Positions 1 to 2,561 of a stretch of 2,561 nucleotides of DNA are shown piece after piece. This DNA comes from a virus (lineage: Duplodnaviria; Heunggongvirae; Uroviricota; Caudoviricetes). A program made the translations under genes and the position numbers. Below the pieces are notes generated by a model. The model worked only from the letters and a program-made list of their open reading frames with translations, was not told where the DNA came from and did not search any database. How positions within the stretch are numbered: position 1 is the first letter of the stretch; every line of letters starts with the position of its first letter. The stretch is taken from IMG/VR virus record IMGVR_UViG_2778261535_000016; one strand, 5' to 3'.

Positions 1-564
1 GTACCAGATAACAGGCCAACTCAGATTTATGCTGTTTCAGGCTCAATAAACACCTCAGATGGTAGGGAAAAAAGCGACCCGCTAACTACGAGTGAACTCA
101 GTCTGAATATGTCCCCTGGTTATGAAGGTGATGCAATTTTGGATGCATGGGGAGATATCAGGATCGTAGCTTTTCGCTGGCTTGCGGCCGTCAGAGAAAA
201 GGGAGATGGTGCCCGCTGGCATTTTGGTGTCATAGCACAACAGGTAAGAGATACTTTTCTCGCACATGGGGTTGATGGAACCCGGTTTGGTCTTCTCTGT
301 TACGATGAATGGGATGATCAATACGAGCCAGTGATGGCGGTAAGGACGATTACTGAAGTTGTGGATGGTGTTGAAATTGAAAGGGAAGAAGAATACGAAA
401 CAGAAGAGCGAACTCTGGTACGCAAGGCCGGAAATAGGTGGGGGATTCGTGCTGACCAGTGTTTATGGCTTGAGTCTGCTTATTTGCGTAGAAGAATCGA
501 AAAAATAGAGTCACATCTTGCGGAGCTGAATAATTTGCTGAATCCGGAGGGGGGATCTAAGTAG
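1..564 (+). CDS. 3' portion of a larger gene whose 5' end lies outside the window; probable phage tail fiber/tailspike C-terminal domain resembling an S74-type intramolecular chaperone (auto-cleaving) domain
   Basis: Frame 1 is open from base 1 with no stop until TAG at 562-564; the ORF track starts at the first ATG (109) but the frame continues upstream. The translation contains ...FGVIAQQVRD... and a C-terminal ...YLRRRIEKIESHLAELNNLL helix-like segment, a pattern I associate with the chaperone-of-endosialidase (peptidase S74) C-terminal domains of tail fibers. The canonical Ser-Lys dyad cannot be confirmed by eye. An acidic stretch EIEREEEYETEE is present. Confidence 0.55.
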   Translation, partial: VPDNRPTQIYAVSGSINTSDGREKSDPLTTSELSLNMSPGYEGDAILDAWGDIRIVAFRWLAAVREKGDGARWHFGVIAQQVRDTFLAHGVDGTRFGLLCYDEWDDQYEPVMAVRTITEVVDGVEIEREEEYETEERTLVRKAGNRWGIRADQCLWLESAYLRRRIEKIESHLAELNNLLNPEGGSK

Positions 565-740
565 TCTGCTTGCTTATTGCACAGTACGTGAAGCTAATTC
601 AATTGTAACTGAGAGGAACACTAGACCATTTTCTAAACGTAATTTTCATTGCCGTAGAAGGTAGAAATACAGTGCTTTGAGGTAACTATTATTCATAAAT
701 GGTTTATTATGTGTGCGTCTTCAATAGTAAGGAGATTGTT
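565..740 (+). promoter_or_regulatory. AT-rich intergenic region upstream of the lysis cassette; probable site of the lysis-operon promoter and/or upstream terminator (no hexamers confidently assignable)
   Basis: 176 bp non-coding gap between the stop at 562-564 and the first lysis-gene start region. It is visibly more AT-rich than the flanking coding sequence and contains a near-tandem GTAGAA-g-GTAGAA at 654-666. No well-spaced sigma70 -35/-10 pair was found by eye. Confidence 0.3.
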
Positions 741-779
741 ATGCGTAATAAATGGTGTCCATTATGTCAGCTCATCTAA
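741..779 (+). other. 12-codon upstream ORF (MRNKWCPLCQLI) preceded by a consensus Shine-Dalgarno, overlapping the start of the first membrane-protein gene in a different frame
   Basis: AAGGAG at 729-734 followed after a 6-nt spacer by ATG at 741; frame 0 reads 12 codons to TAA at 777-779. The membrane-protein ORF begins at ATG 752 or 764 in frame 2, inside this mini-ORF. Confidence 0.3.
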
Positions 780-1168
780 CCACTGACCATCTAAATCAAT
801 GGCTTAGCATGAGCTCTTTTGCTGCTGTTATCGTAGGCGTTCCGCCAGAAGTGGCGCTCGGTGCTTTGGCTGGCGCGGTGATTTTTGTTACCTCTGCAGT
901 AGAGTACCCCATCCGTCGCCGGGTGCTCCTGTCGATGCTCAGCTTTCTTTGCGGCCTTCTCTTTTACAAACCAGCAGCATCAATTCTTATCGGCATAGCC
1001 AGCCTGATCCCTACCATCACGCAGGACTCTTTTGAAAAAGGGATTGTTTTCTCTGCAGGCGCATTCGTGTCAGCAATTGTCGCTGTGCGTATTGGTATAT
1101 GGCTCTATCACCGTTCCGATAATCCACGCGAGTTAATTCCGGGGAGAAAAGACGATGGTAACGCATGA
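752..1168 (+). CDS. putative holin: small polytopic membrane protein (138 aa, about 4 hydrophobic segments, charged C-terminal tail)
   Basis: Hydrophobic segments at roughly residues 18-50 (interrupted by PPE), 57-71, 75-89 and 97-119, followed by a hydrophilic charged tail [19 protein letters not shown]. GxxxG/small-xxx-small motifs (GALAG, SAGAFVSA) are present. Sits immediately upstream of, and co-oriented with, the endolysin. The start is ambiguous: ATG 752 (MVSIM...) or in-frame ATG 764 (MSAHL...). Confidence 0.6.
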   Translation: MVSIMSAHLTTDHLNQWLSMSSFAAVIVGVPPEVALGALAGAVIFVTSAVEYPIRRRVLLSMLSFLCGLLFYKPAASILIGIASLIPTITQDSFEKGIVFSAGAFVSAIVAVRIGIWLYHRSDNPRELIPGRKDDGNA

Positions 1169-1463
1169 GTTTTTTTTGCTTATCACCAATGCAGTTATTT
1201 GCACTGGCATAGCAATTCGCGTTGTCACATTCCGGCGTAACGGCTCTCAACACAGAAGGTGGGGAGGATGGCTTGCTTATTTCCTGATTGTTGCTGCGGC
1301 CAGTATTCCTGTTCGTGTCGCCTATGCAATCTGGTTACGTACGCCAATGGCTGTGGATTTATCCGAGGTCATTATCAACGCTGTCATGCTAGCTGCGGTT
1401 ATTAAAACGCGCGGTAACGTCGTTCAGATTTTCAAAGTATCGAGGTCTAAACATGGAGATTAA
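1155..1463 (+). CDS. second small membrane protein (102 aa, 2-3 TMDs, basic C-terminus); holin/antiholin-like partner, role unresolved
   Basis: SD-like GGGGAG at 1141-1146 with an 8-nt spacer to ATG 1155. Overlaps the upstream gene by 14 nt and the endolysin start by 11 nt. Hydrophobic segments at about residues 6-24, 39-61 and 69-83, with a basic loop [12 protein letters not shown] and a basic tail [19 protein letters not shown]. Confidence 0.55.
1170..1177 (+). repeat. T8 homopolymer tract at the junction of the two membrane-protein genes (codons 6-8 of the second gene)
   Basis: Directly visible run of eight T at 1170-1177, immediately after the upstream gene's TGA stop (1166-1168), encoding F-F-L in the 1155 frame. 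Confidence 0.9.
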
Positions 1464-2082
1464 ACAATTCCAGCGAGCTGCTGGTATCAGCGAGTCACTG
1501 TCCGCACGCTGGTTCTCGCATATAACGTCTGCGATGAAAGAGTTTGGTATCAGCAAACCAGAAGATCAGGCTATGTTTATTGCTCAGGTCGGGCATGAGT
1601 CTGGAGGCTTCACCCGGTTGCAGGAGAATTTCAACTACAGCGTCAGCGGACTGGCTAACTTTGTTCGGGCTGGGCGTCTCACTCAGGGACAGGCCAACGC
1701 ATTGGGGCGACGCGCAGGCGAACCACCATTGCCACCTGAGCGCCAGAGAGCTATTGCCAATCTGGTGTACAGCAAACGCATGGGGAACAATGCCCCCGGC
1801 GATGGCTGGAATTACCGAGGTCGCGGACTTATCCAGATTACCGGTTTGAATAACTATCGTGACTGCGGAAACGGCTTGAAAGTGGACTTGCTGGAGAATC
1901 CTGAACTGCTGGCGCAGGACGAATACGCGGCTCGTAGCGCGGCGTGGTTCTTTGCCAGCAAAGGATGCATGAAGTATACCGGTGATATTGCACGTGTAAC
2001 TCTGATTATCAATGGTGGCCGGAACGGCATCGACGACCGGCGCGCGCGGTACGTCACTGCCAGTAAGGTGCTGGCTATATGA
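1453..2082 (+). CDS. endolysin, glycoside hydrolase family 19 (chitinase-like lysozyme) type; cytoplasmic, no signal peptide or SAR domain
   Basis: 209-aa product with the GH19 signature [12 protein letters not shown] (Glu49 codon at 1597-1599), a second Glu at position 58 (LQENFNY, codon 1624-1626), and [12 protein letters not shown] and INGG motifs. The N-terminus [16 protein letters not shown] is hydrophilic. GAGG at 1442-1445 lies 7 nt before the ATG. The stop TGA 2080-2082 overlaps the next start as ATGA. Confidence 0.92.
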
Positions 2083-2561
2083 TCTGGGAATTCGTAAAAG
2101 CATATTGGAAACAACTGCTTATCGTGGTGATGCTTGCTGCTCTGTTCATCGTCGGAGTGGTTGCCTGGAATATACACGGCAGTCGCCAGTACGATGCCGG
2201 GTATGCGCAGGCGGAAGAAGACCGCAAAGCCGAAGAAGACAAAGTTCGTCAGTACTACGAACAGGAGAAAGTGACCAATGAACGTGAAGCTCAGCAGAGG
2301 ATCGACCAGGCGCGCAATGATGCTCTTGATGCTGCCGCTCGTGCTGGCAGGTTGCAGCAACAACTCTTTGCCATCCGTGAGCAGCTCAGGCAGTATAACG
2401 CCATTGTCGGCGCTGGGACGTCAGCCGCAGACACCGGAGTTTTGCTTGCCGACGTGCTCAGCAAATCTCTCGAGAGAAACAGACAACTGGCAGAGTATGC
2501 TGACCGGGCAGCCGAAGCCGGAAGAGTCTGCGAAAAACAGTATGACACCCTGACAAGATAG
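2079..2561 (+). CDS. Rz: i-spanin (Rz-like): N-terminal transmembrane anchor plus periplasmic coiled-coil domain
   Basis: 160-aa product with a single N-terminal hydrophobic segment [18 protein letters not shown] (residues about 13-30), then an Ala/Glu/Gln/Arg-rich sequence typical of a coiled coil, and a Cys near the C-terminus (RVCEKQYD). ATG 2079 overlaps the endolysin stop (ATGA). Contains an embedded lipoprotein ORF in the +1 frame. Ends at TAG 2559-2561. Confidence 0.85.
2278..2553 (+). CDS. Rz1: o-spanin (Rz1-like) outer-membrane lipoprotein, entirely embedded in the +1 frame of the i-spanin gene
   Basis: AGGAG at 2263-2267, 10 nt before ATG 2278. Product [26 protein letters not shown]... 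has a basic n-region, hydrophobic h-region and lipobox L-A-G-C (Cys26 codon 2353-2355). Ser at +2 (not Asp) is consistent with outer-membrane sorting. The 66-aa mature part is Pro/Ser-rich with two further Cys (C56, C60). Confidence 0.85.
   Translation: MNVKLSRGSTRRAMMLLMLPLVLAGCSNNSLPSVSSSGSITPLSALGRQPQTPEFCLPTCSANLSRETDNWQSMLTGQPKPEESAKNSMTP

Follow-up and report, generated by a model that had tools for sequence, protein, structure and literature searches.

A conserved leader ORF under a hairpin at the start of the lysis cassette of epsilon15-like phages and its possible role as a gated ribosome loader

The viral record IMGVR_UViG_2778261535_000016 includes a stretch of 2,561 nt (hereafter the window, by which the whole stretch is meant) that carries the lysis region of a temperate podophage of the epsilon15/phiV10 type (genus Uetakevirus). 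At the head of its lysis cassette, gene 1, which encodes a membrane protein, starts at ATG 764 inside a 12-codon mini-open reading frame (mini-ORF, or leader ORF) that opens at ATG 741 behind a consensus Shine-Dalgarno (SD) sequence. In the relatives of this phage, the SD sequence, the start codon and a stop codon close to the gene 1 start are conserved in the leader ORF, as is a long hairpin whose 3' arm holds the leader's ribosome-binding site (RBS). From this anatomy we infer that the leader ORF is translated, that its translation is coupled to that of gene 1 and that some agent opens the hairpin. We lean, though only slightly, towards the reading that the leader ORF is a gated ribosome loader, which would feed the weak gene 1 start by termination-reinitiation. 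The coordinates of all features are collected in Table 1.

The leader ORF and its stop codon

When the sequence was read directly, AAGGAG was found 6 nt upstream of ATG 741, and the mini-ORF (MRNKWCPLCQLI; codons ATG CGT AAT AAA TGG TGT CCA TTA TGT CAG CTC ATC TAA) proved to be present as originally predicted, its stop being located 13 nt inside gene 1 relative to ATG 764. The gene 1 frame reads TAA 749-751, then ATG 752-754, then ATG 764-766, and is open to 1168. The predicted SD:anti-SD pairing is -9.2 kcal/mol for ATG 741 versus -2.8 kcal/mol for ATG 764, both computed on sequence L004, which is identical to the window across both SD regions. The original prediction that the strong AAGGAG is spaced for ATG 741 and leaves the membrane-protein frame without a comparable site therefore stands as regards the AAGGAG, but ATG 764 is itself preceded by a weak SD. 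This is GGTG 754-757, located 6 nt ahead of ATG 764 and immediately 3' of the hairpin; the pairing of gene 1's own SD, -2.8 kcal/mol in the window, has a mean of -5.3 kcal/mol in relatives.

For comparison, upstream regions were gathered from annotated phages and from 80 IMG/VR contigs found via the gene 1 protein. Five bacterial genomes (two of Citrobacter and one each of Klebsiella, Kluyvera and Scandinavium), sought with narrow derived search patterns, were added, as were 50 further IMG/VR contigs found via the conserved 25-nt motif CCATATATGGTTTATTGTGTATGAT, which comprises a palindrome and the outer 5' arm of the hairpin. The result was 77 distinct sequence types over -90 to +30 relative to the gene 1 ATG, from phages and prophages of Escherichia, Salmonella, Klebsiella, Enterobacter, Citrobacter, Kluyvera and Scandinavium. 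Two sequences, L108 and L116, were anchored by eye from the sequence and are included in the 72/77 count given below. Hairpins were compared in 43 distinct sequence types, and the stop was analysed in 41 distinct N-terminal codon strings of gene 1. The mini-ORF start equivalent to ATG 741 is called uATG throughout; L093 is epsilon15 and L095 is EC.W1-9. The listing of gene 1 protein homologues took in only relatives above 80% identity, and a tblastn search against phages returned one distant homologue, in Hafnia phage yong2 (35% identity). The homologue in yong2 has its own GGAG and no comparable leader upstream of it, and the element therefore appears confined to the close family.

Comparison with homologues bore out the mini-ORF. 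In 72/77 types, a purine-rich SD with a mean pairing of -10.7 kcal/mol is placed 5-8 nt before a uATG that opens a short ORF, and this ORF ends within ~20 nt of the gene 1 start; on these alignments, the combination of SD, ATG and short ORF is more than chance. Its details vary widely. The ATG lies at -23, with 12 codons and a stop at +13, in 53 types, and at -22, in another frame, with 14 codons and a stop at +20, in 13 types. phiV10 has a 6-codon leader with a stop 2 nt ahead of the gene 1 ATG, the leader of L108 ends as an overlapping TAATG, the leaders of L040 and L041 stop at +8 and that of L070 at +7, and the leader of L043 consists of ATG-TGA only. Across homologues, the leader stop is found from -20 to +20 relative to the gene 1 start. 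Since the peptide, its length and its frame vary while the SD, the start and a nearby stop are kept, it would be loading and termination that matter and not the product.

The variation extends into gene 1, whose first ~20 codons are by far its most variable part; in the different hosts the remainder is >90% identical. Leader types and N-termini occur in shuffled combinations, as in L022, where an epsilon15-type leader is joined to the N-terminus of the ATG -22 type, and a recombination boundary seems to lie at the gene 1 start. In L040 and L041 (~1476-1500), the leader ORF has an A8 run (ATGTACAAAAAAAATGG) just before an in-frame gene 1 ATG, a potential slippage site that might fuse the two frames in this lineage only. 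A frameshift fusion of the basic leader peptide (MRNK...) to the membrane protein, which would act as antiholin, was considered and rejected because no slippery site is conserved, the A8 run being found only in L040/L041.

The leader stop codon appears to be under selection. Among the 41 distinct gene 1 N-termini, the triplet at +13 is TAA in 36, TGA in 4 and CAA in 1, the sole sense-codon exception being L043, whose leader has already terminated. Residue 5 of gene 1 varies (Leu, Ile, Val, Met or Thr) and is encoded by CTA, TTA, ATA, GTA, CTG, ATG or ACA; codon 5 never ends in C or T, while codons 2-4 and 6-8 use all four bases. CTA accounts for 1.3% of the Leu codons in the remainder of gene 1. 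That the stop is kept by means of rare codons, and switches between TAA and TGA with the amino acid, suggests that the leader frame is probably read by ribosomes. A second TAA is found in the mini-ORF frame at +28, 15 nt after the first (window 791-793, in gene 1 codons 10-11). Most homologues have TTA AAT here and the window has CTA AAT; A is the last base of codon 10 in 34/41 N-termini, and an invariant Asn (AAT/AAC) follows. The second TAA may be a back-up stop, or it may reflect AT-rich codon choice at the gene start.

The uATG is absent in five types (L042, L045, L061, L064 and L079). In L064/L079, both the uATG and the SD in the hairpin loop have been lost, and AGGAG has been acquired 5 nt before the gene 1 ATG (-7.4 kcal/mol), which looks like an alternative solution to the same problem. 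Together with the conservation of the mini-ORF SD, start and stop, this gain of an SD by gene 1 itself supports the earlier suggestion that gene 1 translation involves an interplay with the mini-ORF.

The interplay could also be negative. The leader ORF would then be translated, but its ribosomes would occlude the weak SD and AUG of gene 1, keep the lethal protein low and thereby delay lysis. Occlusion is the main rival to the ribosome-loader reading: the mini-ORF spans the entire gene 1 RBS, the contrast in SD strength between leader and gene 1 is large, and a passage of PMC13285730 describes occlusion by upstream RBSs as a mechanism. It is nevertheless disfavoured and, in our judgement, unlikely. 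When L064/L079 lost the leader, they gained a strong and well-spaced SD instead of keeping a weak one. The leaders of phiV10 and L108 have the geometries that are classic for positive coupling. Moreover, a selected stop near the start is expected for re-initiation, whereas occlusion has no need of it.

The hairpin over the leader start

The original prediction took no hairpin into account, whereas the RBS of the mini-ORF turned out to be the 3' arm of a long conserved one. In the computed fold of the window, the hairpin has a 21-bp stem and an 8-nt loop. The epsilon15 stem is ~24 bp long and almost perfect, with -40.8 kcal/mol over 105 nt (z = -5.3; 0/200 shuffles as stable). The hairpin forms in nearly all 43 types despite their differing inner-stem sequences. 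Full stems measure 20-24 bp, the z-scores of most types lie between -3 and -9, and the differing inner sequences still pair the SD. Around the uAUG, the positions from -11 to +12 are paired in 25-42 of the 43 types each, most of them in >35, and every position shows two to five pair types. Across the 43 sequences, 94.9% of the cells in the outer 13 bp are paired, a level reached by 0/500 shuffles and to be compared with 25-57% in slid controls; one outer pair occurs as GC in 21, as AU in 16 and as GU in 3 sequences. RNAalifold independently gives the same stem together with an inner helix that pairs the anti-SD stretch with the SD. When the whole window was searched with Rfam covariance models at E <= 1, only an irrelevant snoRNA model at 307-358 was returned. 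Opening the leader RBS of the window is computed to cost 14.8 kcal/mol in a long transcript; for a transcript that starts near 717 the cost is 6.3 kcal/mol, and in epsilon15 it reaches up to 23 kcal/mol.

In the epsilon15 record NC_004775.2, a feature 'RNaseIII; mRNA processing' is annotated at 24755-24817, exactly over the hairpin. The hairpin could accordingly be thought of primarily as an RNase III site that separates or stabilises the lysis mRNA, in which case the SD and AUG within it would be incidental and gene 1 would use its own SD after cleavage. The duplex is nearly continuous and, with 21 bp in the window and ~24 bp in epsilon15, has the length of about two turns (at least 20 bp) typical of RNase III sites; its outer stem is also still present in L064/L079, where the leader ORF is missing. 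However, an RNase III site needs neither an SD 5-8 nt before an ATG in each divergent clade nor a stop that switches between TAA and TGA, and the epsilon15 annotation itself appears to be a prediction. As the primary role of the hairpin, RNase III cleavage thus seems quite improbable to us, although RNase III processing and a leader function are not mutually exclusive.

A further possibility is that the inverted repeat acts as a DNA element, with two regulator half-sites flanking a promoter, and not as an RNA structure. The outer arms are indeed conserved beyond what pairing requires, as is the palindrome that precedes the 5' arm, and the region lies within a recurrent operator/palindrome module described below. 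The non-Watson-Crick cells are distributed asymmetrically, with 86 G·T versus 4 A·C, indicating selection on plus-strand RNA and not on a DNA palindrome. Moreover, the inner stem covaries freely yet stays paired. We therefore give very little weight to the DNA element and retain the RNA hairpin as the structure that gates the leader in the ribosome-loader reading.

A possible model of gated loading and a candidate promoter of the cassette

In the ribosome-loader reading, the strong SD 729-734 and AUG 741 would load ribosomes on the 12-codon leader, the peptide of which would be irrelevant. The ribosomes would terminate at UAA 777-779 and re-initiate 13 nt upstream at AUG 764, aided by GGUG 754-757, so that expression of the membrane protein would be set by the leader ORF rather than by the poor RBS of gene 1. 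A passage of PMC5972666, citing Adhin and van Duin 1990, states that ribosomes, after termination, can initiate again at a distance of more than 40 nt, upstream or downstream, where an SD-like sequence precedes the start.

Because the RBS, start and stop of the leader appear to be under selection, as does the hairpin that should block their use, two states of the RNA, one closed and one open, are to be expected. RNAs containing the 5' arm would keep the leader closed, and only RNAs that lack or lose this arm would be translated efficiently. The open state would most likely be provided by a transcript from the cassette's own promoter, the -10-like hexamer of which (705-710) lies inside the 5' arm, and read-through transcripts from upstream would fold and remain silent. 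A possible source of read-through in the window is the tailspike gene, which ends 176 nt before the leader ORF and has the same orientation. If the promoter is real, a start near 717 means that native transcripts lack most of the 5' arm, which corresponds to the lower opening cost of 6.3 kcal/mol. The hairpin may be opened via an internal promoter or via RNA processing. RNase III cleavage is the main alternative to an own promoter for producing the open state, but if the enzyme cut about a helical turn away from the loop, the SD and the AUG would end up on different fragments, and the leader would more likely be inactivated than opened.

The surroundings of the hairpin bear on the promoter. 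In epsilon15 and EC.W1-9, copies of a 10-bp palindrome, CCATATATGG, stand before the operons for replication, head (gp3), tailspike and lysis. The repressor operator ATTACC-N5-GGTAAT lies 6-47 nt ahead of each copy, and TT follows the palindrome, which is probably a protein-binding site in a promoter region. The recurrence of this module places the leader in a transcription-control region. A -10-like hexamer is found in nearly all clades (TATTGT, TATCAT, TATTAT, TAATAT, TACTAT), and it is kept also in clades with a divergent upstream gene; given this divergence, a promoter must exist there. In EC.W1-9, a promoter scan calls GTAACA-17-TATCAT at the homologous place.

Other observations concern the same modules. 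The epsilon15 record does not annotate the operator-like site (TTTACCATATGGGTAAT) ahead of its lysis cassette. At the replication promoter, the palindrome is at a class II activator position, just upstream of TTGATA-17-CAAAAT. In epsilon15, a small perfect hairpin (TTAAATT-GGTAAT-AATTTAA, 2990-3015) comes after the palindrome upstream of gp3, and the arrangement of a palindrome followed by a stem-loop may be more general in these genomes. On the minus strand of the window, a promoter-like site at 789-761 (TGGTCA-17-CATAAT, with an upstream TG) would yield an antisense RNA across the leader. A conserved antisense promoter was rejected, since the -10 of this site complements the gene 1 ATG context, which varies (CATAAT, CATGTT, CATTGC and others).

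In a more specific and only tentative version of the ribosome-loader reading, the gate would discriminate between promoters. Only transcripts from the cassette's own repressor-controlled promoter, begun within the 5' arm, would expose the leader and so permit the lethal membrane protein to be made, while read-through or prophage-state RNA would fold silent and might be cut by RNase III. We consider this version possible and put it forward with considerable reserve.

Several points weigh against gated loading or parts of it. Taken by itself, the window gives a z-score of only -1.8 for its 105-nt fold, and the case for the hairpin therefore rests on the comparison, in which the covariation counts come from related sequences and represent few independent events. 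The stop counts likewise come from related sequences, and stop conservation could partly be due to AT-rich codon choice at gene starts, codon 10 being mostly TTA. The hairpin has -17 kcal/mol in the window and up to -33 kcal/mol in epsilon15, a stability at which leader translation would be nearly abolished in full-length RNA, so that the model needs an opening step. A sigma-70 scan of window positions 500-900 gave no plus-strand promoter above threshold, the candidate matching at 8/12 positions, and a promoter scan of epsilon15 reported nothing at this place. At least three alternative promoter registers exist, which were compared by eye and are indistinguishable: TATGAT (alignment columns 32-37), a -35 of TTTATT with the palindrome serving as class II activator site, and GTAACN-17-TATYRT. 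Finally, L042, L045 and L061 have no uATG and retain only a weak SD, so that either some genomes can do without the leader ORF or these prophages are in decay.

The original prediction also pointed to the two in-frame ATGs of gene 1, which lie four codons apart in the window and resemble the dual start of a holin/antiholin pair; protein versions of 138 aa in some databases are in keeping with this. In the homologues, however, the equivalent of ATG 764 is conserved and ATG 752 is not, the latter being present in 15/77 types and replaced by ACG in epsilon15, phiV10 and Tyrion. All annotated relatives examined (epsilon15, phiV10, Tyrion, Klebsiella phage ST11-OXA245phi3.2, PAT1, BUCT554, EC.W1-9 and TL-2011b) begin at the ATG 764 equivalent and have 134 aa. 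ATG 752 has no SD at a usable distance and follows directly on TAA 749-751, and the extension that it would add, MVSI, contains no basic residue (no Lys/Arg). At this codon, a C/T polymorphism (AAACGG/AAATGG) faces a G in the hairpin base and is neutral for pairing. On this evidence, a dual start is highly improbable. A hairpin that would bring the SD and ATG 764 together was likewise rejected, since only a weak AU stem is possible between them. The idea that a longer gene beginning at ATG 741 was split by an indel introduced in sequencing or assembly is excluded: the unusual layout alone speaks for it, the same short ORF and gene start are found in dozens of independently sequenced phages and prophages, and none of the homologues compared has a continuous frame from the SD-proximal ATG.

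The lysis cassette and parallels in other systems

In megablast searches, the cassette matches sequences of Escherichia, Salmonella, Klebsiella and Enterobacter phages at 77-94% identity. The earlier label 'holin' for gene 1 agrees with the family name Phage_holin_8 and with the designation 'putative holin', but in the RefSeq records of epsilon15, phiV10 and Tyrion gene 1 is entered as 'membrane protein' and the name 'holin' is given to gene 2. The cassette genes are chained by overlap: gene 2 starts 14 nt before the end of gene 1, the endolysin gene starts 11 nt ahead of the end of gene 2, the Rz start forms an ATGA overlap with the endolysin stop, and the Rz1-like frame is wholly embedded in Rz. 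Because of these overlaps, ribosome delivery to gene 1 could propagate to the downstream genes. In the clade of the window, the cassette comes directly after the tailspike gene on the same strand, while in epsilon15 and phiV10 O-antigen conversion genes on the opposite strand lie between the two. No terminator between the tailspike gene and the cassette was detected in a scan of window positions 500-900.

Table 1. Features of the window and operator/palindrome modules in two related phages
Position	Strand	Feature	Basis
109-564		Tailspike gene 3' end, Peptidase_S74 domain (endosialidase-type intramolecular chaperone)	
681-687	+	GGTAAC/GTAACT, like the right half-site of the repressor operator ATTACC-N5-GGTAAT; candidate -35	Inferred
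681-702		Operator/palindrome module of the window	
693-702	+	TCATAAATGG, degenerate copy of palindrome CCATATATGG, directly before the hairpin	Near-invariant columns
702-722	+	Hairpin 5' arm, with anti-SD UCUUC at 718-722	Fold, covariation, wobble asymmetry
705-710	+	TATTAT, candidate -10 inside the 5' arm; predicted transcription start near 717	Inferred
723-730	+	Hairpin loop AAUAGUAA, includes the first two A's of AAGGAG	Window fold
729-734	+	Mini-ORF SD AAGGAG	Predicted pairing -9.2 kcal/mol
731-753	+	Hairpin 3' arm: GGAG of the SD, spacer, AUG 741, codons 2-4	Fold, conservation
741-779	+	Leader mini-ORF, 12 codons, MRNKWCPLCQLI, TAA 777-779	Start and stop conserved, peptide and frame not
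752-754	+	ATG 752 ('M1'), in-frame, not conserved, probably nonfunctional start	15/77 types
754-757	+	GGTG, weak SD of gene 1 (GGTGG in most relatives)	Near-invariant alignment columns
764-1168	+	Gene 1, 134-aa membrane protein, Phage_holin_8	Pfam PF16931, E = 5.7e-11
776-781	+	Gene 1 codons 5-6, CTA ACC, which hold the mini-ORF stop in the +1 frame	
1155-1463		Gene 2, 102-aa Phage_holin_3_7 protein	
1453-2082		GH19 endolysin	
2079-2561		Rz-like DUF2514 spanin	
2278-2553		Rz1-like frame within Rz	Annotation-inferred, without Pfam hit
2918-3010, 19895-19965, 24704-24775, 33735-33765		Operator/palindrome modules, epsilon15 (L093)	
9729-9800, 27890-27945, 29339-29395, 32100-32130, 40484-40520		Operator/palindrome modules, EC.W1-9 (L095)	

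Translational coupling through a leader ORF is known from tap/repA of IncFII plasmids and from repY/repZ of IncI and IncB plasmids. An upstream ORF of iraD is given as a further case in a passage of PMC5574718. The arrangement described here resembles all of these in that a short ORF with a good RBS ends near a poor or masked gene start, the peptide is irrelevant and RNA structure controls access. It differs from them in having no sequence relationship, in a stop 13 nt past the start to be served, which makes back-scanning necessary, and in the lysis gene that lies downstream. No pseudoknot, antisense RNA or CsrA site was identified at the leader.

In the phages MS2 and GA, the lysis gene L is activated by termination of coat-gene translation. 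A passage of PMC9955659 has the coat-lysis region of GA as a model system. Here, too, a lysis protein with a weak or closed start would be made by ribosomes that have just terminated on an overlapping upstream frame. In MS2, however, the upstream frame is a full structural gene in an RNA genome, whereas in the window it is a dedicated 12-codon leader behind a hairpin gate in a double-stranded DNA (dsDNA) temperate phage. For IS10/Tn10 and IS50, Davis, Simons and Kleckner reportedly described in 1985 an inhibition by fold-back of the RNA that protects against outside promoters. As in IS10 and IS50, an inverted repeat pairs the RBS (702-722 with 731-753); a candidate -10 hexamer lies in its 5' arm, so that native transcripts would lack this arm. 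Unlike in IS10 and IS50, the transcription start is only predicted, the gated RBS is that of the leader ORF, and the cassette follows a tailspike gene on the same strand.

In hok/mok, translation of the small lethal membrane protein requires that of a leader frame, mok, which is long and overlaps nearly all of hok. The hiding of an RBS by intramolecular structure is treated as a general principle of type I toxin mRNAs in a passage of PMC11228461. The lysis leader shares with hok/mok the lethal membrane protein, the overlapping leader and a leader RBS that would be hidden until the RNA is remodelled, but no conserved antisense RNA was found for it (the minus-strand site at 789-761 varies), and its product belongs to a lysis cassette. 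Lambda S and P22 gene 13 have a dual-start motif with an upstream stem-loop, sdi. The window likewise has two nearby ATGs and, just upstream of a putative holin gene, a stem-loop that would influence initiation; unlike in lambda S and P22 gene 13, the second start is unconserved and brings no basic residue, and the structure hides a separate leader ORF instead of selecting one of two in-frame starts.

To our knowledge, leader-ORF coupling, fold-back gating and an RNase III hairpin have not been described in combination, and with conservation throughout a genus, before the lysis cassette of a dsDNA phage, and our literature searches gave no description of an upstream ORF before a holin gene. 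Coupling, fold-back and RNase III sites are all known, and what is reported here is an extension and not a new principle.

Explanations of lysis timing in dsDNA phages usually invoke proteins, namely the triggering of holins, antiholins and dual starts. A different control point would be given by a conserved device of RNA before the cassette, made up of a leader ORF to load ribosomes and a hairpin to hide this ORF. Annotation pipelines and expression constructs that begin at the gene 1 ATG would miss the element that drives translation. The family affected consists of temperate podophages, including serotype-converting and Stx-carrying prophages of E. coli and Salmonella. If the gate does discriminate between promoters, IS10-style insulation joined to leader-ORF coupling would constitute a safety catch and timing device for lysis, conserved across Uetakevirus.

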